The notes under the pieces are model-generated. The model did not search any database. It saw only the letters and a list, made by a program, of their open reading frames with translations, and was not told the DNA's origin. The translations under genes and the position numbers were made by a program. 50,954 bases of DNA. Source: Alphaproteobacteria bacterium. GTDB lineage: Bacteria > Pseudomonadota > Alphaproteobacteria > RF32 > CAG-239. This document shows positions 2,921-46,516 of this stretch, in pieces (positions within the stretch are counted from its first letter, which is position 1; the number at the start of each line of letters is the position of its first letter). Where the stretch lies: NCBI GenBank assembly GCA_017475525.1, contig JAFVFH010000054.1, positions 1 through 50,954 on the forward strand, written 5' to 3'.

Positions 2921-3030
2921 TAACACACGCAAGCCAAGGCGGATTGCTTTTGATGAAAAGTTAAATTCGCTCCGGTGCCTTGAGAAATCAAAGCCAAAAG
3001 CTTGCGGAGGTTTAACCGGAAAAGAAAAGG
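2921..3030 (+). promoter_or_regulatory. rpsB 5' leader (S2 autoregulatory RNA)
   Basis: cacacgc...cggtgcc...gcggaggtttaaccgg in the long rpsB 5' UTR; resembles alphaproteobacterial rpsB leaders as recalled. Confidence 0.5.
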
Positions 3031-3039
3031 AATTTATAT

Positions 3040-3846
3040 ATGTCACTTCCGACTTTTACTTTGCGTCAGCTTGTTGAAGCAGGCGCGCACTTCGGTCACC
3101 ACGCTCGTCGTTGGAACCCGAAAATGGCTCCTTACATTTATGGTAAGAAAGACAATATTCACATCATTAACTTGCAAAAAACATATCCGATGCTTTACAA
3201 CGCATTAAATGCAGCGCGTGAAGTGGCGGCTAACGGCGGCAAAGTCTTGTTTGTTGCTACAAAAAAGCAAGCTCAAGATGTGGTGAAAGAAAACGCACTT
3301 CGTTGCGGTCAATATTATGTGAACTATCGTTGGTTAGGCGGTATGCTCACGAACTGGAAAACAGTTCACAAATCAATTACCCGTTTGGTCAAATTAAACG
3401 ATATGTTCGAAAATAACCAAACAGAAGGTTATACCAAAAAGGAAATTTTGAACCTTAAAAAAGAGCAAGAAAAACTTGCAATGTCTTTGAATGGTATTAT
3501 GAACATGGGTGGTCAGCCTGATATGCTTTTTGTGATTGATACACCTAAAGAAGCTCTTGCAATCAAAGAAGCTAAAAAACTCGGCATTCCTGTTGTCGGT
3601 ATTGTTGATACAAATGCTGATCCGACAGAAGTTGATTATCCGGTTCCGGCTAACGATGATGCTATTCGCGCCATTACGCTTTATTGCGAACTCATGAGCG
3701 CTGCCATCGTTGACGGTATGGCATCTGAAATGGAAGCCAAAGGTGTTGAGGTTGAAGCTGAAGCATCTGCTGAAGAAACAGCTGAAACAAAGGCTCCCAA
3801 AAAACGTGCCCCGAGAAAAAAAGCTGAAGAAAAAGCAGCTGAATAA
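3040..3846 (+). CDS. rpsB: 30S ribosomal protein S2
   Basis: [21 protein letters not shown] and [10 protein letters not shown] motifs. Confidence 0.99.
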
Positions 3847-7874: not shown

Positions 7875-7950
<76 letters not shown>

Positions 7951-17917: not shown

Positions 17918-17946
17918 TTGACTTTTTTCCTTTGGTGTGGCATCAT
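17918..17946 (+). promoter_or_regulatory. promoter of leader A
   Basis: TTGACT-17 bp-CATCAT; same design at 40047-40019 (-) and a decayed copy near 46728-46700 (-). Confidence 0.7.
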
Positions 17947-17951
17947 TAAAG

Positions 17952-18111
17952 TATAACCGAAATGGTTATGGTGTCTAGTTGGCATTTTCGAAACGTATAC
18001 TCCTGCTAACGGGAGTTCTTGATATAAGCATATTTATGACGAATAAAAGAGGCTGCGTTTCGACAGTTAACTAGCTCCCACTTTGGATATTTTCTGAAGT
18101 GATTTTTTTTT
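17952..18111 (+). ncRNA. putative structured leader/attenuator (copy A)
   Basis: Colinear with copy B, with compensatory stem changes; ends in ctcc, hairpin and T9. Confidence 0.75.
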
Positions 18112-18162: not shown

Positions 18163-19422
18163 ATGAGATACAAATTTTTAACAGCTGTCTTAGCAGCCTC
18201 AACAGCCCTATCTGATATAGCCATGGCAACAATTCCCGAAGGTTGTGTTGATAAGGGCGACGGCACTTGCATCTATCGCGAAAAAAATGTGACGTCGCAA
18301 TATGACACCTCAAGCGGATATATCCTTCAAAAAACAGTTTTAAGTGCCGCACAAGGCGGCGAAGGGGTTGGCGTCAGCACCAATGTTTATAACTATAGCT
18401 ATGATGCTAACGGAAATGTGAGCGAACTTTCTCTGACCCAATATCCGGATGGTTCTGATAAAAGCCAAAAAACCGTTGTGCAATACAGCTACGATGAAGA
18501 TAACAATTTGATTTCAGCAACGCGCCAAAGTTATGAAAATTATGACAACCCTAATGTCAACAATTTCGCTTTTAATGAACTGAATATGTTTGACGGACCT
18601 CACATGCTCTATACATCTGAGCCGTCGACAGATCCCTATGGCAACCCGCAGACTTATGTTTATGACACGCACGAAAACGGAAACAAAACAAAAACTTATT
18701 TGTGGGATGAGAATAACGGAGAGGTTTATACATATAATAGCGATGGCATATTGATAGGCTATGGCTATATACAAAACGGCGAAACGAATAATGTCTACAC
18801 ACTCGATAATAACGGTGCGCTGCTGTCCGTTGGCGCTCAAGCTGGAACTGTAATAGACGTCACTTATGATGAAAACGGCGGCTTTTCAGCCTCAGAAAGT
18901 TACGGTCAGTCAAACTCATACAAATTAACCATTGACCCGAACTATACTTTGCCTGACGGGAGAGTCGTCACTTTGCAAACGATGTGGCAGGAAAAAGGAT
19001 GGACAGGAGAACCTTTAGAAACAGTGTCCGCCTTTGCTTATCTTCAAGAAGGCAAAGAGATGATTGTAGACGGCTATACAAATTATGATAAATATGGCAA
19101 TCCGACATACATTCGGATGTACTATTACACAGAAGACGGTCAGCCGGAAAATATAACAAACAAGTATTATTCTTACACCTATGACGAAGACGGACAGATA
19201 TTAACCTGTTCAGAAAGAAATAATTCGAAAGATCCATGGGCGACTTGCAGTGAAAACAGCGGTTCAAACTCGAATGTTTCCGGCGGCGGTACAAATTCGG
19301 AAAATTCGGAAACAAGCGGTTCTTTTGCGCCTACCCGCAATCCAAAACGCATTTATACCGTTGAAGAAGCCGCGGCACTTTCAAAAGAAACAGGCAACAC
19401 CTTCCGTCTTCGTTACAAATAA
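18163..19422 (+). CDS. secreted protein with YD-like repeats, Ser/Asn/Gly linker and conserved C-terminal tag
   Basis: AAGGAG RBS; signal peptide; YSYDANGN, YSYDEDNN and YTYDEDGQ repeats; ends KRIYTVEEAAALSKETGNTFRLRYK. Confidence 0.85.
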   Translation: MRYKFLTAVLAASTALSDIAMATIPEGCVDKGDGTCIYREKNVTSQYDTSSGYILQKTVLSAAQGGEGVGVSTNVYNYSYDANGNVSELSLTQYPDGSDKSQKTVVQYSYDEDNNLISATRQSYENYDNPNVNNFAFNELNMFDGPHMLYTSEPSTDPYGNPQTYVYDTHENGNKTKTYLWDENNGEVYTYNSDGILIGYGYIQNGETNNVYTLDNNGALLSVGAQAGTVIDVTYDENGGFSASESYGQSNSYKLTIDPNYTLPDGRVVTLQTMWQEKGWTGEPLETVSAFAYLQEGKEMIVDGYTNYDKYGNPTYIRMYYYTEDGQPENITNKYYSYTYDEDGQILTCSERNNSKDPWATCSENSGSNSNVSGGGTNSENSETSGSFAPTRNPKRIYTVEEAAALSKETGNTFRLRYK

Positions 19423-20572: not shown

Positions 20573-23500
20573 CTAAAATCTATACTTCAGCCCGAAATCA
20601 AAACGGCTGCGATATTCACTGTCAACATACGATAAGAACCCGCCGTAAATTGACACATCACCTGCATCGTAAGAAAGCGTTGAGCGCAAAACGGCATAAT
20701 CATCACGGCGCTTTTCGTCGCTGATTTTGAATGTGCCGTTCATTCCATTCATTTGAAGCTCCATATCATACGGATTGCCAAATTCGTGATAAAGCATGGC
20801 TCCTGCCATCAATTTAAGCTGATGGTTCTTCGCAATTTTCTTTTCTTTTGAAATATAGGCGCCAAAGCCCAATTCTGCCGAATAAGTTCTCTGATTTGCA
20901 CTCGAAAGGCTGTATTGTTTTGTATCTTCTTTGAGTTTTGTTTGATAAGCCGTTAAATGAACCGCTGTGGCCGGTGAAAGTTCAAAACCACCGAAGGAAA
21001 GCGGATAGCGCACTTCACTTTCAAGTCCGAAGGCGCGTTTTTCAATATGTCCGTCATAGCTTCTGCTCTCATAGCCGTTGCGGTCATATGTGCCGTAGAG
21101 ATACGACATCTTTGGTGAAAACACCATATTAAACCCGTTTTTCTTGAGCTGATACGGCATCAAAAGTTGAAAATTTTTGCTTTCTCTTGAGTTTTTCAGA
21201 TGTCCGTCATCCGAACGCAACTCCGAAATCGCCAAACCGACGCCGAAATGCCCTCCGGCCATATTCGTTCCCGAAAGTGCATATTTCGTGTTTGAACCTC
21301 TGTCTTGAAACACTTTCGGCGCCACTTCACCCGAAAATGAAAATTCCCCGTCTTTCAACGCAAAAAGTTTGCTGTTCAAATCAAAGTTAAGCTCCTTTTG
21401 CATAATCATATCCTCATCGGCAAAGCGCGAAATCACATTTTGTCCCGTCAAATCACGCATGGCATTCTCAACCTCATTCAAACTTGATTTTGTTTTCAAA
21501 TTCGCAAATAGAGCTTCATTATTTTGCATATCATAATTCTTTTCCAAAAAGCTTGCCACCGTGCTGTTTTCAACCACTTCATTGAAATCTTTTTTCGTTA
21601 ATACGACATCGTTTCCTTTAAGCTCAGCGTCAAACAACACCGACTGAGAACTCAAATTCAAAGCGCTGGCATCTGATGTGTCAATTGCATTTAAGAGGGT
21701 ATAATTTTGCTCAAATCCGTTTTTGACCACATCACTTGAAATGCTCAAATTGCCCGTTATCGCAGGCGCACTGAAAGTTCCGTTCTGCGCAAGTGTTACT
21801 CCTTTGCCCAAACTTAATGCTTTTGTTGCGCTCACCAAACCCATATTTTCAAATTCGGCGCCACCTGTTAAATAAATGGCATATCCGCCGTCAGGGGTTA
21901 AACAGCCTGTTGACGTATAAGTCGGATTATCTTCCCAGTTCAGATCAATATTATTAATTCTGAATTGAAATTCGCCCGTGTTTGTGATTTTTGCGCCGTT
22001 TGTGGCATAAATGCCGTATGTTTTTTCTTTTGACGGTCCCGAAACCCAAATGCGTCCGGAGTTTGTGACCTTGCCGCCGTCGCTGTAAATGCCGTATGCG
22101 TTGCCTGTTGTTGACGTTACATTGATTTCATAGCGCTGTGTTGAGTTTTCAATCGTTCCGCCTTTATTATAAATACCATAGGCATCACCGCCCGCACTTT
22201 CAACTTCAAGTCCGCTGGTGTTTGTCAGCGTTGCCGTGCCGCTGTCCGATTGCGTCACATAAATACCAAAAGCATTGCCCGTTCCGCCCGTTGTTTTTGC
22301 AGAAATCACACGCCCGTTTGTCATTGTGCCGTCTTCAACATACGCCCCGTAAACATTGCCCGTTGCACTTTGTGCTTGAACGGAATAAACAAGCGTTGTT
22401 TCGCTGATGTCTTTGATGTTATTGATTGTTCCGCCTTTGGTGTATAAGCCGTATGCATTGCCGGCATCTGCCGATGACGCCACCTCACCGGAATTTTGAA
22501 TTGTCCCTAAAGAATAAAGTCCGTATGTGTTTCCGCTGCCTTGAGAATTGATGACACTGACAACCGAATCAATATACGAATACGTTCCTATTTTATTTTG
22601 ATTATAAATCGTGCCGTTTGTGCCGGATTGGTAAATACCATAAGCCGCACCGTTTCCTTTATTTGAAACATTAATTTCTGAATACACAATTGCTGTCGGT
22701 GATGTTTCTTCCGCACTGCTGTCATCAAACTCGGCCGTATAAATATCATTCCCGCCGAAAATACCGTAAACCCTGCCGTCGCCGACATTGTTAATTGAAA
22801 TTGTGCCGATGGCTTTGGCGGAACCTTGTGAAGCAATATCCGAAACAAGAATACCCGAGCCCTTGAGCTCCGCATAAACATTATAAATCGTATCCGCATT
22901 GTTTGAATAGAGCCCGTAAACCGTTCCGTCACTGTTGTTGTTGATGGAAATCGAAGATGTTTTGTTCATCACCAAAAAGTTTTCTTCAACTTTCTTCGTG
23001 TCCGTTTTTAAAACATCGCCGATCTCCGTGCTGTTATTGTCATAAACAACGTCATTAATCACATGTCCGGCAGTTTCACCGTTAAAATAATAGGCATTCG
23101 AATCTTTCACATAACCCTTCATGGTTGTGCCGTCCGTATCATACCAAATCTTGTTGCCGTCATCGTCATACTTATAATCCGGCTCCGTCACGGTTGCCGT
23201 TGTCGGCTCAATTGAAAAATATCCGTTTGCAAACTTATCCTGATCCAAACGATAATCATGCGGTGTTTGCGCCGCGTCATAAAACAGACCGTAAACATCA
23301 GCATAATTGTTGTTTGTGAGCGTTAATGTGCCTGCTTCATTGTAGTTTGAGTTAATGTCCGGATTACCGTACACATCTTTGCTTTGTTTTTTAACGCACA
23401 TGCCGGTGCTGTCCTTGCCGTATCCGTTGATACACTCATCGCAAAGCGTTCCGCCGTAACCGTTTTCGCACACACATTTTCCGGCCTGTTGCGTTCCGTG

Positions 23501-24142
23501 CGCACATTCAAGCGTTTTATAACATAAATCTGTGCCGTAGTTGCCGTATCCTGCTGCACAGGTATTGCATTTTTCGCCCGCATACCCCGTATCGCAAACA
23601 CAAACACTTTCCGACCAATGTCCGTGCACACAATTCGGATCCGTGCTTGAGCCGCCACCGCCTCCGCCGCCTCCGCCACCGAGCGCAATGGCTGTTCCGG
23701 CACCTGCCGCCACAACACCGGCACCGATTAAAGCCTTTGTTTTCCAGCTCATAGAGCTCATCTTAGCGGCATTTGCAGCAACCGCCGTATCCATATTACG
23801 CACCGGATTGATGACCACCGATTGCATAAATTCGCGATATCCGTTAATTTCCCACGTGCAGGGATGTGAAGGGTTTGCTCCTGATTGCAAAAATGATTTA
23901 TAGGCTCTTCTGTCGCGGTTTCTTGCCGCCACGCACAACCCCGTGTCACCGCTTGAGTTGACCGAATCGATATTAAGCCCGCGCGAACGTGCCGCATTGA
24001 TTGCCGAAACATCACCTCTTTGAGCAAGCGCATAAAGTGCACGAAAGCTTTCGGGAGAAAGAGCCTGCAAATAAGCCTCTGCCCTAAAGCTATAAAAACT
24101 TAAAACACAAGCAGCAACAAAACAAAAACGCCTCAAAATCAT
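20573..24142 (-). CDS. autotransporter-like surface protein (ankyrin-like, EGF-like, beta-helical passenger, beta-barrel)
   Basis: Signal peptide; GDTGLCVAA..GANP; poly-Gly; CxCxxGYxGxxC repeats; AYGIY repeats; C-terminal GLKYRF. Confidence 0.8.
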   Translation of the reverse strand: MILRRFCFVAACVLSFYSFRAEAYLQALSPESFRALYALAQRGDVSAINAARSRGLNIDSVNSSGDTGLCVAARNRDRRAYKSFLQSGANPSHPCTWEINGYREFMQSVVINPVRNMDTAVAANAAKMSSMSWKTKALIGAGVVAAGAGTAIALGGGGGGGGGGSSTDPNCVHGHWSESVCVCDTGYAGEKCNTCAAGYGNYGTDLCYKTLECAHGTQQAGKCVCENGYGGTLCDECINGYGKDSTGMCVKKQSKDVYGNPDINSNYNEAGTLTLTNNNYADVYGLFYDAAQTPHDYRLDQDKFANGYFSIEPTTATVTEPDYKYDDDGNKIWYDTDGTTMKGYVKDSNAYYFNGETAGHVINDVVYDNNSTEIGDVLKTDTKKVEENFLVMNKTSSISINNNSDGTVYGLYSNNADTIYNVYAELKGSGILVSDIASQGSAKAIGTISINNVGDGRVYGIFGGNDIYTAEFDDSSAEETSPTAIVYSEINVSNKGNGAAYGIYQSGTNGTIYNQNKIGTYSYIDSVVSVINSQGSGNTYGLYSLGTIQNSGEVASSADAGNAYGLYTKGGTINNIKDISETTLVYSVQAQSATGNVYGAYVEDGTMTNGRVISAKTTGGTGNAFGIYVTQSDSGTATLTNTSGLEVESAGGDAYGIYNKGGTIENSTQRYEINVTSTTGNAYGIYSDGGKVTNSGRIWVSGPSKEKTYGIYATNGAKITNTGEFQFRINNIDLNWEDNPTYTSTGCLTPDGGYAIYLTGGAEFENMGLVSATKALSLGKGVTLAQNGTFSAPAITGNLSISSDVVKNGFEQNYTLLNAIDTSDASALNLSSQSVLFDAELKGNDVVLTKKDFNEVVENSTVASFLEKNYDMQNNEALFANLKTKSSLNEVENAMRDLTGQNVISRFADEDMIMQKELNFDLNSKLFALKDGEFSFSGEVAPKVFQDRGSNTKYALSGTNMAGGHFGVGLAISELRSDDGHLKNSRESKNFQLLMPYQLKKNGFNMVFSPKMSYLYGTYDRNGYESRSYDGHIEKRAFGLESEVRYPLSFGGFELSPATAVHLTAYQTKLKEDTKQYSLSSANQRTYSAELGFGAYISKEKKIAKNHQLKLMAGAMLYHEFGNPYDMELQMNGMNGTFKISDEKRRDDYAVLRSTLSYDAGDVSIYGGFLSYVDSEYRSRFDFGLKYRF

Positions 24143-31889: not shown

Positions 31890-32073
31890 GGATGGTTGAA
31901 ATAGCCGTCTATGGACCAGAAATCCATTACAAGAGGTCGTGTGCAAGACCTAAAAATGCATATTCCAGTTTTTGGACTGGAAGGTGGCTGAATAAGGAAC
32001 TTCCATTCCAAATAGGTTACGCTATCATCTTGTAATAGTTTCTGCTTCCAGTCGCTTTTATAGCGATTTTTTT
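31890..32073 (+). ncRNA. putative structured leader/attenuator (copy C)
   Basis: Follows TTGCCA-17-TATCTT (31854-31882). GAAAT-loop hairpin; cagaaa..ttacaaga / tcttgtaa-tag-tttctg; ggtc-gtgtgcaa-gacc; tgaataagg; cttcc, terminator and T-run. Confidence 0.65.
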
Positions 32074-32104
32074 GTTGAAACAAATTTTGGAAAGGAAACT
32101 TAAT

Positions 32105-32743
32105 ATGAAAAACAATCAAAATGGTCGTTCAATGGTCGAAATGCTCGGCGTTTTGGCTATTATCGGTGTGTTGTCAGCAGGTGGTTTGGCAGGCTATTCA
32201 AAGGCTATGTTCAAACACAAATTAAACAACACAATGGATCAACTCACAATGCTTGTGACTAACATCCGCACGATGTATGGCACGCAAGACAGCTACAAAG
32301 ACTTGAGCAACGTTCAAGCCGTTAGTTTGGGCATCGTCCCTGCCGCTATGAAGGGGACTGCTAAAGCAGCAGTTGCACCTCAGGGCAAAGAAGGTGAGGA
32401 TGGCTATGTAGCCGGTAGTGCTGCCAGCCAAGAACTGGTAAACCCGTTCAAAGGCACTGTGACAATTGAGCCTTCCGGCGCAACAGCAAAAGGTGATAAC
32501 AGGGCATTTACAGTGACGTATGCCGGTCTTCCGACAGAGGCTTGTATTGCTCTTGTGACAGCCGATTGGGGCGCAGGTGCTGGTTCGGGCTTTATCGCCG
32601 TTGCCGCAGGCAGTGAAAAAATTGAAGATGCTCTTGTCGGAAGCGGTCTCGGTGGTCGTGCTGAAGGTGCGGCTTATTCCGTTGGCAATGCTATCAATGT
32701 TTGTGGCTCGACAACGAACACAGTTGCATTGAAGTTCTATTAA
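32105..32743 (+). CDS. type IV pilin (PilS/type IVb-like globular domain)
   Basis: Prepilin-like N-terminus GRSMVEMLGVLAIIGVLSAGG; NPFKG, GLPTEAC and C-terminal C..NT motifs. Confidence 0.85.
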   Translation: MKNNQNGRSMVEMLGVLAIIGVLSAGGLAGYSKAMFKHKLNNTMDQLTMLVTNIRTMYGTQDSYKDLSNVQAVSLGIVPAAMKGTAKAAVAPQGKEGEDGYVAGSAASQELVNPFKGTVTIEPSGATAKGDNRAFTVTYAGLPTEACIALVTADWGAGAGSGFIAVAAGSEKIEDALVGSGLGGRAEGAAYSVGNAINVCGSTTNTVALKFY

Positions 32744-38953: not shown

Positions 38954-39829
38954 TTATTTATAGCGCAGTTTGAAGGTGTTGCCTGTTTTTTTAGAAACAA
39001 GTGAGGCTTCTTCTATCGTATAAAAACGCCTGTTCTCTCGTTTGCCGGATGTTGTGACAAGTTTTCCTTTATTGTCAAACACATAGGTCACACCATTGAC
39101 TTGTTTTGTTGTGGCTTTGATTGATTTGAGCTCGCCATAACCTGCCGCTTCTAAATTTGCGTCGCATTTTTTTGTATCTCCCGTGCAATAGATTTTGAGA
39201 TTTTCTAAATCAACACGCATATTTTCACCGTGCTCGGTAAAAATATGTCCTAAGGCGGTTTTGTCGCTGATGGTTAGGGTTAAAAGACTTTCACATGCGC
39301 TTAAAGTTGCAGAACCTAAGTTTGTAACAGAATCAGGAATAAAAACGTCTGTCAGTGACGTTCCGCGAAAAGCCTCAGCAATGTCTGTCACGGAAGATGG
39401 AATATTAATTTTTTTTAAGTCGGACCAGTTAAAAGCCGCAGTATCAATTTTGGTCACGGAATCCGGAATAACAACTTCATTAAGTATAGCGCCATAAAAA
39501 GCATTAGCGCTGATAGTTGTTATTGATGAAGGGATTTGAAGTATGCCCTCATCCTTAATACCATGAAAAGCTTGCCAACCTAAATCTTTGATGGTGTCTT
39601 CAATCACAATATTACGGATATCTTGACCACGCCATGGTGCCAATATTCCTGTACCATTAGACCAGCTTCCGATATTGCCATTATTACCTGTGCCGCGAAT
39701 CGTTAAAGTGCCATTGACAATTTGGTATTCGCAATTTGCCGTATTGCCCTTGGCATCTGTGCCGCAAGCTTCCCACGCGTTGGCGTTAAAACTTGCAAGT
39801 ATTGCTAAAATCAAAACTGTTTTTTTCAT
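38954..39829 (-). CDS. secreted BspA-type (LRR_5) protein with conserved C-terminal tag
   Basis: Signal peptide; IPSSITTI, IPDSVTKI and IPSSVTDI repeats; ends RRFYTIEEASLVSKKTGNTFKLRYK. Confidence 0.9.
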   Translation of the reverse strand: MKKTVLILAILASFNANAWEACGTDAKGNTANCEYQIVNGTLTIRGTGNNGNIGSWSNGTGILAPWRGQDIRNIVIEDTIKDLGWQAFHGIKDEGILQIPSSITTISANAFYGAILNEVVIPDSVTKIDTAAFNWSDLKKINIPSSVTDIAEAFRGTSLTDVFIPDSVTNLGSATLSACESLLTLTISDKTALGHIFTEHGENMRVDLENLKIYCTGDTKKCDANLEAAGYGELKSIKATTKQVNGVTYVFDNKGKLVTTSGKRENRRFYTIEEASLVSKKTGNTFKLRYK

Positions 39830-39850: not shown

Positions 39851-40013
39851 AAAAAAATCCGTTCGAGATAAACAAAACGGAGGAGGAGCTCAAAGAACTG
39901 TTGGTGCACAGCTTGTCTTATTCGACGCAAAATTGACGCTTATATCGACTACTCCTCATCAAGGAGTTGAACACCAAAGATGTCTTTGAAACACCGCAAC
40001 CATTTTGGTTACG
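39851..40013 (-). ncRNA. putative structured leader/attenuator (copy B)
   Basis: Homolog of copy A with compensatory changes; promoter TTGACT-17-CATCAT at 40047-40019; terminator tccgtt/aacgga plus U7. Confidence 0.75.
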
Positions 40014-40158
40014 CTTTTATGATGCCACATCAAACGTTAAAAGTCAAATAAAAAAGGTTTTAATTATGTGTTTTTTGAGCTTTTCATATTAAAAAAGTTT
40101 GTTATATTGTTAAATATGGAAGCGGCATATATGTGCCTGATGGCACAACGCCGGCTTT

Positions 40159-46189: not shown

Positions 46190-46457
46190 TCGTGAGTTCG
46201 AGTCCTGTTCCTTATCCCATAAAAAAAGCCCACTTAAAAGTGAGCTTTTTTATATGGGGCGGATTATGAGACTACTTCGCATAACACTTCGTGTTAGCTC
46301 GTTCACTGCGCTCATCGGCAAAGCCGATCGCGATGCTTCCGCCTCGCTTTCGCTTGTAGTCAAACTCACTTTTTCGTGAGTTCGAGTCCTGTTCCTTATC
46401 CCATAAAAAAAGCCCACTTAAAAGTGAGCTTTTTTATATGGGGCGGATTATGAGACT
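46190..46457. repeat. 84 bp exact direct repeat including the tRNA-His 3' end and terminator
   Basis: 46190-46273 is identical to 46374-46457. Confidence 0.95.
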
Positions 46458-46516
46458 CGAACTCACGACATCTGGTACCACAAACCAGCGCTCTAACCAA
46501 CTGAGCTAAATCCGCC
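46439..46516 (-). tRNA. tRNA-His (GTG)
   Basis: Anticodon arm ctggt-ttGTGgt-accag; G-1:C73; encoded CCA. Confidence 0.97.

Follow-up and report, generated by a model that had tools for sequence, protein, structure and literature searches.

The C-terminal domain (CTD) of the type IX secretion system (T9SS) of Bacteroidota is a folded unit of about 70-100 residues, represented by Pfam and NCBIfam models, that ends many unrelated Sec-exported proteins, BspA-type leucine-rich repeat (LRR) proteins among them, in dozens to hundreds of copies per genome. The LPXTG/sortase, PEP-CTERM/exosortase and GlyGly-CTERM/rhombosortase signals are also C-terminal, lineage-restricted and carried by many paralogous and unrelated exported proteins, and each consists of a motif, a transmembrane (TM) helix and a basic tail. 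In the dockerin-cohesin system, a small modular appendage attaches many different exported proteins to a common scaffold; dockerins are duplicated calcium-binding modules of about 70 residues from Gram-positive bacteria. A peptide that bears comparison with all of these was found in a stretch of 50,954 nucleotides, here called the window (contig JAFVFH010000054.1, assembly GCA_017475525.1), from an uncultured alphaproteobacterium of the GTDB lineage RF32; CAG-239. It ends two proteins encoded there: P0001, an exported protein with YD/RHS-like repeats, and P0002, an exported BspA-type LRR protein. This peptide of 25 residues, the tag, is a real signal at the end of Sec-exported repeat proteins, confined to one genus and dependent on a free C-terminus, and it probably serves in docking, export or sorting of some kind.

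Like the T9SS CTD, the tag stands at the C-terminus of many unrelated Sec-exported proteins, BspA-type LRR proteins included, but it occurs in an alphaproteobacterial host and corresponds to no family model; since it is only 25 residues long, it is not a T9SS CTD. With the sortase, exosortase and rhombosortase signals it shares lineage restriction and occurrence on paralogous as well as unrelated exported proteins. In contrast to them, it is hydrophilic throughout, with no more than two consecutive hydrophobic residues in its consensus, and because it has no TM helix, as the preliminary description of the window had noted, it is not a PEP-CTERM-type signal. It resembles a dockerin as a small modular appendage on different exported proteins but is shorter and has no Pfam match.

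Closer precedents come from two recent lines of work on pili. The type IVb pili TCP of Vibrio cholerae and CFA/III of enterotoxigenic Escherichia coli each export one Sec-dependent exoprotein, TcpF and CofJ, respectively, whose disordered N-terminal signal is bound by the minor pilins TcpB and CofB (PMC10120004; PMC9565799). The PilC/PilY1 tip adhesins donate their last ~10 residues in trans to a PilK-family minor pilin, whose β-sheet these residues complete, and the same strand completion occurs in cis in GspK and Caulobacter CpaL (bioRxiv 10.64898/2026.02.14.705861).

Two Unrelated Secreted Proteins with a Common C-Terminus

The gene for P0001 (419 aa) lies at 18163-19422 on the plus strand. 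Its product begins with a predicted Sec type-I signal peptide, MRYKFLTAVLAASTALSDIAMA (18163-18228), which a first heuristic missed and an any-start heuristic accepts, and it ends in tag copy A, KRIYTVEEAAALSKETGNTFRLRYK (19345-19419), with a TAA stop codon directly after it (19420-19422). The tag is preceded by a 32-residue linker rich in Ser, Asn and Gly (19249-19344). The gene for P0002 (291 aa) occupies 38954-39829 on the minus strand and encodes a predicted Sec type-I signal peptide, MKKTVLILAILASFNANA (39776-39829), which is positive in the heuristic and conserved in orthologues, and tag copy B, RRFYTIEEASLVSKKTGNTFKLRYK (38957-39031), again directly followed by TAA (38954-38956). The coordinates of copy B read on the plus strand give nonsense; the coding strand is minus. 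A hidden Markov model (HMM) of the tag matches copy A at 19342-19419 (E 9.8e-19) and copy B at 38957-39037 (E 3.6e-17).

Outside the tag the two proteins have little in common. P0002 matches Pfam LRR_5 (E 1e-22, residues 70-182), and P0001 has only sub-threshold matches to YD_repeat_2x and RHS_repeat in Pfam/NCBIfam and groups in body clustering with five other tagged YD-like bodies. BLASTP between them aligns the last 28 residues (18/28 identical, E 1e-9) and nothing else (next best E 1.8). The corresponding tag DNAs are identical at 57 of 78 positions, and six of the codons for residues common to both copies (R, T, S, L, R and Y) differ synonymously. The preliminary description, made from the letters of the window, had proposed just this: two otherwise unrelated secreted proteins with Sec signal peptides and a common C-terminal tag, synonymous codon differences between the copies and a flexible linker ahead of copy A, and on all these points it is borne out by the translations, the heuristic and the alignment.

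Number, Position and Selection of the Tag

The genome to which the window belongs (G000) comprises 1.445 Mb in 87 contigs, with 40.5% GC and 84.8% completeness. A six-frame HMM search of the whole genome found 117 tag copies no more than two residues from a stop codon, 113 of which score above 20 bits, and a separate profile search gave 115 matches, a recurrence that greatly exceeds chance. The two tagged proteins originally described do both carry the tag, but that number was an understatement, with about 113 such proteins in 20 body clusters. Tagged open reading frames (ORFs) account for ~8% of all ORFs in G000 and lie singly, scattered over the whole genome.

The position of the tag is nearly always terminal. 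Against the 117 terminal copies stands one possible read-through, the ORF C56:3292-4212, in which a 59-bit copy is followed by ~22 residues before the contig breaks off without a stop codon, and which speaks against strict terminality; the other exceptions are two copies cut by contig ends and one short fragment. Among 1.84 billion representative proteins, 386 match the tag at E<=1e-3 and 167 at E<=1e-10, and the 150 matches listed of the 386 all end at the last residue or, in one case, at the last but one. An internal location, which the preliminary description had regarded as damaging to its proposal, is thus confined to the single doubtful ORF in G000 and does not appear among the matches listed from elsewhere.

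The consensus reads K-R-I-Y-T-[VI]-E-E-A-x-[KAR]-[VL]-S-K-[PK]-T-G-N-T-F-[KR]-L-R-Y-K. Asn at -8 and Tyr at -2 are invariant in all 112 G000 tags counted, and ten positions (Y, T, E, A, S, K, G, N, R and Y) are invariant across 22 diverse tags. The last residue is Lys in 107 of the 112 and Arg in the remaining five, never an aromatic one. The peptide is basic (K, R, K, K, K/R, R and K against two E in the consensus; net about +5), and its end, F-x-L-x-Y-K, has an alternating pattern.

Identical residues of G000 tags are encoded by the same codon in 47.5% of pairs, against 45.8% expected from the codon usage of the genome. Leu at -4 and Arg at -3 each use all six codons, and Ser at -13 uses both codon families. 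Identity among the flanks of tagged genes is near random, 27% in the 60 nt past the stop and 31.5% in the 75 nt before the tag. Because synonymous sites are randomized and flanks unrelated, selection is judged to act on the peptide and not on the DNA. Since ~8% of the ORFs have a tag under such strong selection at the protein level, the tag would mark a major lineage-specific route of protein placement in or on the envelope.

Several tagged genes are split, truncated or reduced to remnants (C46:14885-15811, C30:7511-8638, C53:13798-14718, C3:8909-9007 and C64:4927-5013), and one remnant is an ORF of 29 residues, almost the tag alone; such genes suggest fast turnover and pseudogenization of the tagged family.

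Tagged Proteins and Their Signal Peptides

Single-linkage clustering of 111 bodies, stripped of signal peptide and tag, gives 20 clusters: 84 bodies are linked to the LRR group, six, including P0001, are YD-like, and the others form three pairs and 15 singletons. Among 22 representative tagged proteins, Pfam recognizes RHS_repeat in five, LRR_5 in two, MORN_2 in one and a low-complexity family in one; the remaining representatives match no Pfam family, and PilY1 is not among the families matched by the 22.

A signal-peptide-like N-terminus is present in 93 of 97 complete tagged ORFs and in 305 of 839 conserved untagged ORFs, both counted with the same home-made, permissive any-start heuristic, which is not SignalP. 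Three of the four misses start within LRR repeats, as the downstream part of a split gene would, and the fourth has a visible signal peptide. The preliminary description had asked for co-occurrence of the tag with signal peptides and had viewed cytoplasmic carriers as contrary evidence; within the limits of this heuristic the co-occurrence is clear, and the four misses are probably split genes or failures of the heuristic. The C-terminal signal of type I secretion can be dismissed on the same count, its substrates being without a Sec signal peptide and exported from the cytoplasm in a single step. Many LRR-type tagged proteins further have a Cys motif after the signal peptide, roughly C-G-x-x-C-x-W or C-G-T-D-...-C-E-Y, for example at residues 19-35 of P0002.

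Distribution and Subtypes

A profile of 22 tag sequences was searched against 41 genomes, 12 of the window's genus and 29 outside it. Matches were found in ten of the 41, all of this genus: G000 and nine of 11 other species, which have 7 to 104 copies. Two genomes of the same genus, G003 (86% complete) and G009 (99% complete), gave no match with this profile, nor did any of the 29 genomes of other genera, families and classes. The GTDB species genomes yielded 240 candidate stretches, 82 of which were confirmed; the 80 loci retained lie in nine records of metagenome-assembled genomes, all from uncultured (Alpha)proteobacteria. Six of the nine carry labels that suggest samples from cattle, yak or reindeer (RUG, RGIG, Reindeer), and no host is given for the other three. 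Within the genomes searched, the tag is, on these profile matches, restricted to one genus of ruminant-gut Alphaproteobacteria. A tag HMM of 25 residues can be used to pick out, in any metagenome, likely exported or surface proteins of these uncultured bacteria.

The orthologues of P0002 carry distinct subtypes of the tag with a constant core: ..SKKTGNTFKLRYK, ..AKPTGNTVRIKYR, ..AGKV-NSVKIRYR and ..NRVSIKYR. Variant tags also occur in G006 and G011, and subtypes other than that of G000 mostly end in Arg (..IKYR, ..IRYR or ..ITYR). From the distinct subtypes on orthologues of one protein it follows that tags are alike within a genome and divergent between species, a pattern that would fit co-evolution with a partner.

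Family Models, Literature and Predicted Structure

Tails of 40 residues containing the tag have no match at E<=10 in Pfam or NCBIfam, a comparison for which the preliminary description had called, and no model covers the tag when P0001 and P0002 are searched whole. No paper was found for the tag strings in the literature library searched, and searches combining BspA, Alphaproteobacteria, C-terminal and rumen, or RF32 and leucine-rich repeat, returned nothing relevant. The tag is thus an undescribed peptide, new to the family models and literature searched.

A profile search of PDB sequences gave matches to the tag at E 0.02-0.2, namely a 9-residue helix motif that recurs in designed repeat proteins and, over 14 residues, a strand/helix-cap stretch of ribosomal protein L1; both were rejected as local motifs. 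The ESM Atlas search with the tag yielded no usable feature match; as modeled in the Atlas itself, the tail of P0001 aligns to generic β-α-β (crossover) units. In an AlphaFold2 (AF2) model of P0002 built from a 32-row alignment, the mean predicted local distance difference test score (pLDDT) is 89, with ~95 in the body, and three 10-residue blocks over residues 261-291 (tag 267-291) average 74, 64 and 60. The tail of this model contains a single helix (272-278) and, by DSSP, no terminal strand. The tag of P0002, as modeled, is not confidently packed on the body and would be a free appendage.

The Shared Leader

A leader of ~170 nt precedes both genes of the window, at 17938-18106 (plus strand; E 3e-36) upstream of P0001 and at 39855-40027 (minus strand; E 1.7e-34) upstream of P0002, as found by an nhmmer profile and as the preliminary description had indicated. 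Its use as a marker of the tag system fails, however. G000 has 86 leader copies, 53 before tagged genes, 19 before untagged ORFs and 14 without an ORF; the 19 untagged ORFs comprise six pilins and roughly nine apparent cut or split members of tagged families. Tag-free G009 has 12 copies, ten of which precede small paralogous unannotated ORFs of 77-99 aa and one an outer-membrane protein (OMP)-like gene. To judge from its placement in these genomes, the leader is a genus-wide regulatory or mobile element that is not specific to tagged genes.

Search for Export Machinery

The whole of tag-free G009 (82 pieces, 1.33 Mb), which has neither the tag nor another enriched C-terminus, was compared subtractively with G000. 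Only one of 111 tagged G000 ORFs has a match in G009 at E<1e-5. Among untagged ORFs of at least 120 aa, 182 are specific to G000, 19 of which were annotated and three profiled across genomes. None of these three tracks the tag: a C39-like peptidase (L130), taken as a sortase-like candidate, occurs in 3 of 10 tag-bearing genomes; a DUF2490-like OMP (L115) occurs in four of the ten and in one tag-free genus; and an autotransporter (L113) is family-wide. The peptidase, at C63:53269-54078 of G000, is an exported Peptidase_C39-like (papain-fold) protein whose gene adjoins a tagged gene, and of 26 genomes searched just three have it: G000, G011 and G004, the last with an in-frame TGA.

In five genomes, three tagged and two tag-free, there is one secretin and one Omp85 protein (BamA-type) each, and no usher was found. 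TolC-type proteins and autotransporters are part of the core, and the autotransporters of G000 end in the classic ..KYRF. The Slam family (PF04575) matched in none of the five genomes, but its control also matched nowhere, so that this search is uninformative.

A Type IVb Pilus as Candidate Partner

The only secretin of G000 belongs to a type IVb pilus cluster on contig C79, together with a TcpQ-like protein, a PAP_PilO protein, T2SSE and T2SSF proteins and a pilin of the PilS/bundlin type. The same cluster (C79:241-10760; L216) includes two large ORFs without family, one of 582 aa upstream of the TcpQ-like gene and one of 551 aa, Pro/Gln-rich and coiled-coil-like, between PilO and the ATPase. 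The window itself encodes a pilin of the same type at 32072-32743 on the plus strand (223 aa; PilS E 6e-13, Bundlin 1e-10, TcpA 1e-4, N_methyl 1e-3), an untagged component of this candidate partner system, and by motif there are 17 pilin-like ORFs in G000. The six pilin genes behind the leader share it with the 53 tagged genes, and across the 12 genomes of the genus the numbers of tag matches and of pilin-like matches rise together (Spearman rho 0.72, a value not corrected for phylogeny or assembly quality).

A further connection is a protein in which pilin-like and tagged-type elements are fused. When the C-termini of 1171 untagged G000 ORFs were ranked against a position-specific scoring matrix (PSSM) of the tag, C55:2123-3586 came first. 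Its 473-aa form, P0184 (C55:2123-3541), has a prepilin-like N-terminus, a pilin-like domain, a YD-like body and a tail of the tag family, ..RILTKEEALKYVKDKDNQVRVKFK. The pilin-like domain is homologous to the pilin C73:28051-28680 and to a protein of G009. Eleven clusters of full-length homologues, at 42-64% identity, conserve the tail and do not conserve the Glu at +5. This long form is present in seven tag-bearing genomes (G000, G001, G002, G004, G005, G007 and G011), in two of which (G011 and G001) its tail is near the canonical tag, and a short form of 218-234 aa with the pilin-like domain alone is present in the tag-free G003 and G009 and in G006, which has 33 tags. The homologue in G010 is truncated where its contig stops; G008 (59% complete) gave no match.

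A mechanism can be outlined on this basis. After removal of the signal peptide, the body (LRR, YD/RHS-like or other repeats) would stand in the periplasm with its basic tail unpacked. The tail is predicted to form a strand (RIYT[VI]), a short helix (EEAxx[VL]S), a turn (K.TGN) and a terminal amphipathic strand (T-F-x-L-R-Y-K-COOH), and would be bound, above all through the free terminal strand, by one common partner via β-strand addition. The likeliest partner would be the cell's only secretin-based machine, the type IVb pilus, acting via the minor-pilin-like protein. Tagged proteins might then pass through the secretin on the tip of the pilus, where they would be shown as interchangeable adhesins, or be released.

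PilC/PilY1 are likewise Sec-exported non-pilin adhesin-like proteins with a short peptide at the extreme C-terminus, an alternating-hydrophobic strand that in the tag is only predicted; the minor-pilin-like protein likewise lacks a conserved Glu at +5, and cis and trans versions likewise occur in related genomes; the long form of P0184 would correspond to the cis arrangement of CpaL and GspK. The differences are a tag unit of ~25 residues (strand-helix-strand) against ~10, about 100 tagged proteins per genome against one or two, scattered genes against a minor-pilin operon, and a pilus that is here type IVb. Further, the 22 representatives include no PilY1 β-propeller body, and for the tag complementation is only proposed, with an AF2 tail of low confidence. 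With TcpF and CofJ, the tagged proteins have in common an encoded type IVb pilus, Sec-dependent export and a short linear signal that lies apart from the folded body. Each of those exoprotein signals works with its own system only, and the species-specific subtypes of the tag would agree with such specificity.

Several observations weigh on the other side. The TcpF/CofJ signals are N-terminal and disordered and serve a single exoprotein whose gene lies inside the pilus operon, whereas the tag is C-terminal and highly conserved and belongs to ~100 scattered genes; the tag would therefore be a different arrangement from the known type IVb export signals. Pilus, pilins and leader are all present in the tag-free G009 and G003, so the pilus system is independent of tags. 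In G006, 33 tags coexist with only the short minor-pilin-like form, from which it follows that the fusion of pilin and body belongs to a subclade and that tags do not require it. Neither tagged gene of the window lies in a pilus operon, and a tagged gene is found within two genes on either side of one of 17 pilins, as compared with 339 of 1154 genes of other kinds; tagged neighbors are, if anything, rarer around pilin genes. None of the 12 leader copies of G009 precedes a pilin, and the subtractive comparison with that genome brought out no dedicated machinery among the three candidates profiled.

The core pilins themselves bear at best a weak likeness to the tag. Their C-termini rank 3 (the window pilin at 32072-32743) and 8 of 1171 against the tag PSSM, with scores of -32 and -42, where the median for tags is +84; the pilins of G009 rank 51 and lower, and the tag HMM (HMMER) reports no pilin at E<=10. 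The AF2 model of P0184 has an α-1 helix (8-64), a confident globular domain up to ~212 and a β body (236-407), followed by a tail that DSSP assigns as strand, helix and strand at low confidence, its terminal strand (469-472) at a pLDDT of ~48. In blocks from residue 441 the pLDDT is 60, 67, 52 and 48, and the predicted template modeling score is 0.46. Because of this low tail pLDDT and overall score, docking of the P0184 tail in cis is unsupported by the AF2 model; cis docking was set aside, the fold search being dominated by the YD-like body. A complex prediction for the short minor-pilin-like protein of G006 (residues 40-231) with a G006 tag tail of 45 residues, from alignments of 11 and 27 rows, respectively, gave scores of 0.00 and 0.01 (mark 0.32) with no controls and counts neither for nor against the pilus.

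Two other links to the pilus were tried and given up. The leader as a pilus regulon was rejected as a general claim on its copies in G009, which precede small ORFs and no pilin. A variable-pilin profile was rejected as a discriminator since it is family-wide: the pilin-like query has 23 matches in G000 and 105 in G013, a tag-free genome of another genus in the same family. In this sister genus, the pilin family itself seems to have been expanded instead of tagged proteins.

On balance, if a specific partner of the tag is to be named, the best candidate is the type IVb pilus, acting through the minor-pilin-like protein, and it is a tentative one, more apt to be wrong than right. The explanation as a whole, a C-terminal docking or export tag with the pilus as its most likely partner, falls somewhat short of an even chance. 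Its boldest version is rather doubtful: a type IVb pilus handling more than 100 interchangeable tagged cargoes per genome, in which the tag completes or docks a minor-pilin-like tip protein, each pilus emerges through the secretin with a different LRR or YD adhesin, borne or released, and the long P0184 is the cis version. If the pilus were the partner, it would offer a natural example of a pilus addressed by a tag and supplied with a large set of interchangeable adhesins. The type IVb pilus, known to export a single protein, would become a general, tag-addressed system of display and secretion, and C-terminal strand complementation would be extended to type IVb pili with a large swappable repertoire, joining export signals of type IVb pili with strand complementation at pilus tips. 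As to the sorting or anchoring role put forward in the preliminary description, the tag has come through every observation named as contrary to it, and its anatomy makes the role probable; the transporter or partner is so far a candidate.

Other Explanations of the Tag

The main rival, which is itself somewhat unlikely, holds that the tag docks to a core component of the envelope other than the pilus, such as lipopolysaccharide, an abundant OMP or a periplasmic scaffold, to which the basic tail and the amphipathic strand would bind. The basic consensus fits such a partner, as do the homogeneity of tags within a genome and their divergence between species. Tagged genes stand singly among housekeeping genes, and the candidates tested against G009 included no exported machinery specific to the tag, as would be expected if the partner were a core component. 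However, binding by charge would not need ten invariant positions or a strictly free C-terminus, and a core partner would leave unexplained both how folded LRR and YD proteins cross the outer membrane and why a tagged-type body has been fused to a minor-pilin-like protein in seven genomes.

The modeled tails raise the further idea that they associate with one another, strand-helix-strand units pairing mutually to build a mixed coat on the surface or a cluster at the tip, with no receptor other than themselves. The β-α-β crossover units of the Atlas model and the strand-helix-strand assignment in P0184 agree with it; a lone unit of this kind requires more strands for stability, and the same tail is found on ~8% of ORFs and on a pilin-anchored protein too. 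Self-association is nevertheless unlikely: the tail is of low confidence in the AF2 models of both P0002 and P0184, and modules for oligomerization need not be strictly C-terminal.

A terminal strand may also call to mind the β-signal of OMPs, which follows the pattern polar-x-G-x-x-aromatic-x-hydrophobic, and the tag could mimic it and engage the β-barrel assembly machinery (BAM) for insertion or translocation of its cargo. The stretch [KP]-T-G-N-T-F-[KR]-L conforms to this pattern, hydrophobic residues alternate up to the penultimate Tyr, and one BamA-type Omp85 is available per genome searched. This reading is quite improbable, since the last residue is always the Lys or Arg counted above and never aromatic, the Gly is shifted or lost in other subtypes (..AGKV-NSVKIRYR), the bodies are LRR or YD repeats rather than barrels, and the autotransporters of the same genome, with their ..KYRF ends, indicate that BAM substrates look ordinary here.

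The terminal Lys suggests yet another fate. Braun's lipoprotein has the C-terminal sequence ..YRK and is linked to peptidoglycan, and the tags might be joined to peptidoglycan covalently by an L,D-transpeptidase, tethering the proteins in the periplasm. In favor of this, 107 of the 112 G000 tags end in Lys after R-Y. An invariant C-terminal Lys is lacking, however: most other subtypes, and five G000 tags, end in Arg, which has no ε-amine, and attachment of the Braun lipoprotein type was rejected on these grounds; periplasmic tethering would also be an odd fate for ~100 LRR/YD adhesin-like proteins, and the explanation is very improbable.

That the 3′ end is a cassette for recombination or gene conversion at the DNA level, shuffling surface-protein genes while the peptide has no function, would suit a family that is large, variable and partly pseudogenized, with split genes and fragments and with copy numbers from 0 to 115 across the genus, but it was rejected as scarcely credible, conservation lying at the protein level, with randomized synonymous sites (47.5% vs 45.8%), unrelated flanks and window copies that share 18 of 25 residues despite differences at 21 of 78 bases.

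Neighboring Genes and Other Features of the Window

Both tagged genes of the window are alone among housekeeping genes, P0001 next to adhE, a rex-like gene and rnpA, and P0002 next to polA and the gene for a class-A penicillin-binding protein. Convergent with P0001 is an ORF of 1189 aa on the minus strand (20573-24142), the C-terminal ~580 residues of which are 42% identical to the autotransporter L113 (C46:10724-14212 in G000). The end of L113 matches the Pfam Autotransporter domain. Throughout the bacterial family each genome has several paralogues of this protein, which vary in their N-terminal repeats of ~90 residues. At 2924-3036 on the plus strand, upstream of an ORF at 3040-3846, there is a match to the Rfam rpsB leader (45.4 bits, above the gathering score). 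Two tRNA genes are found in the window, at 7875-7947 on the plus strand and at 46442-46515 on the minus strand.

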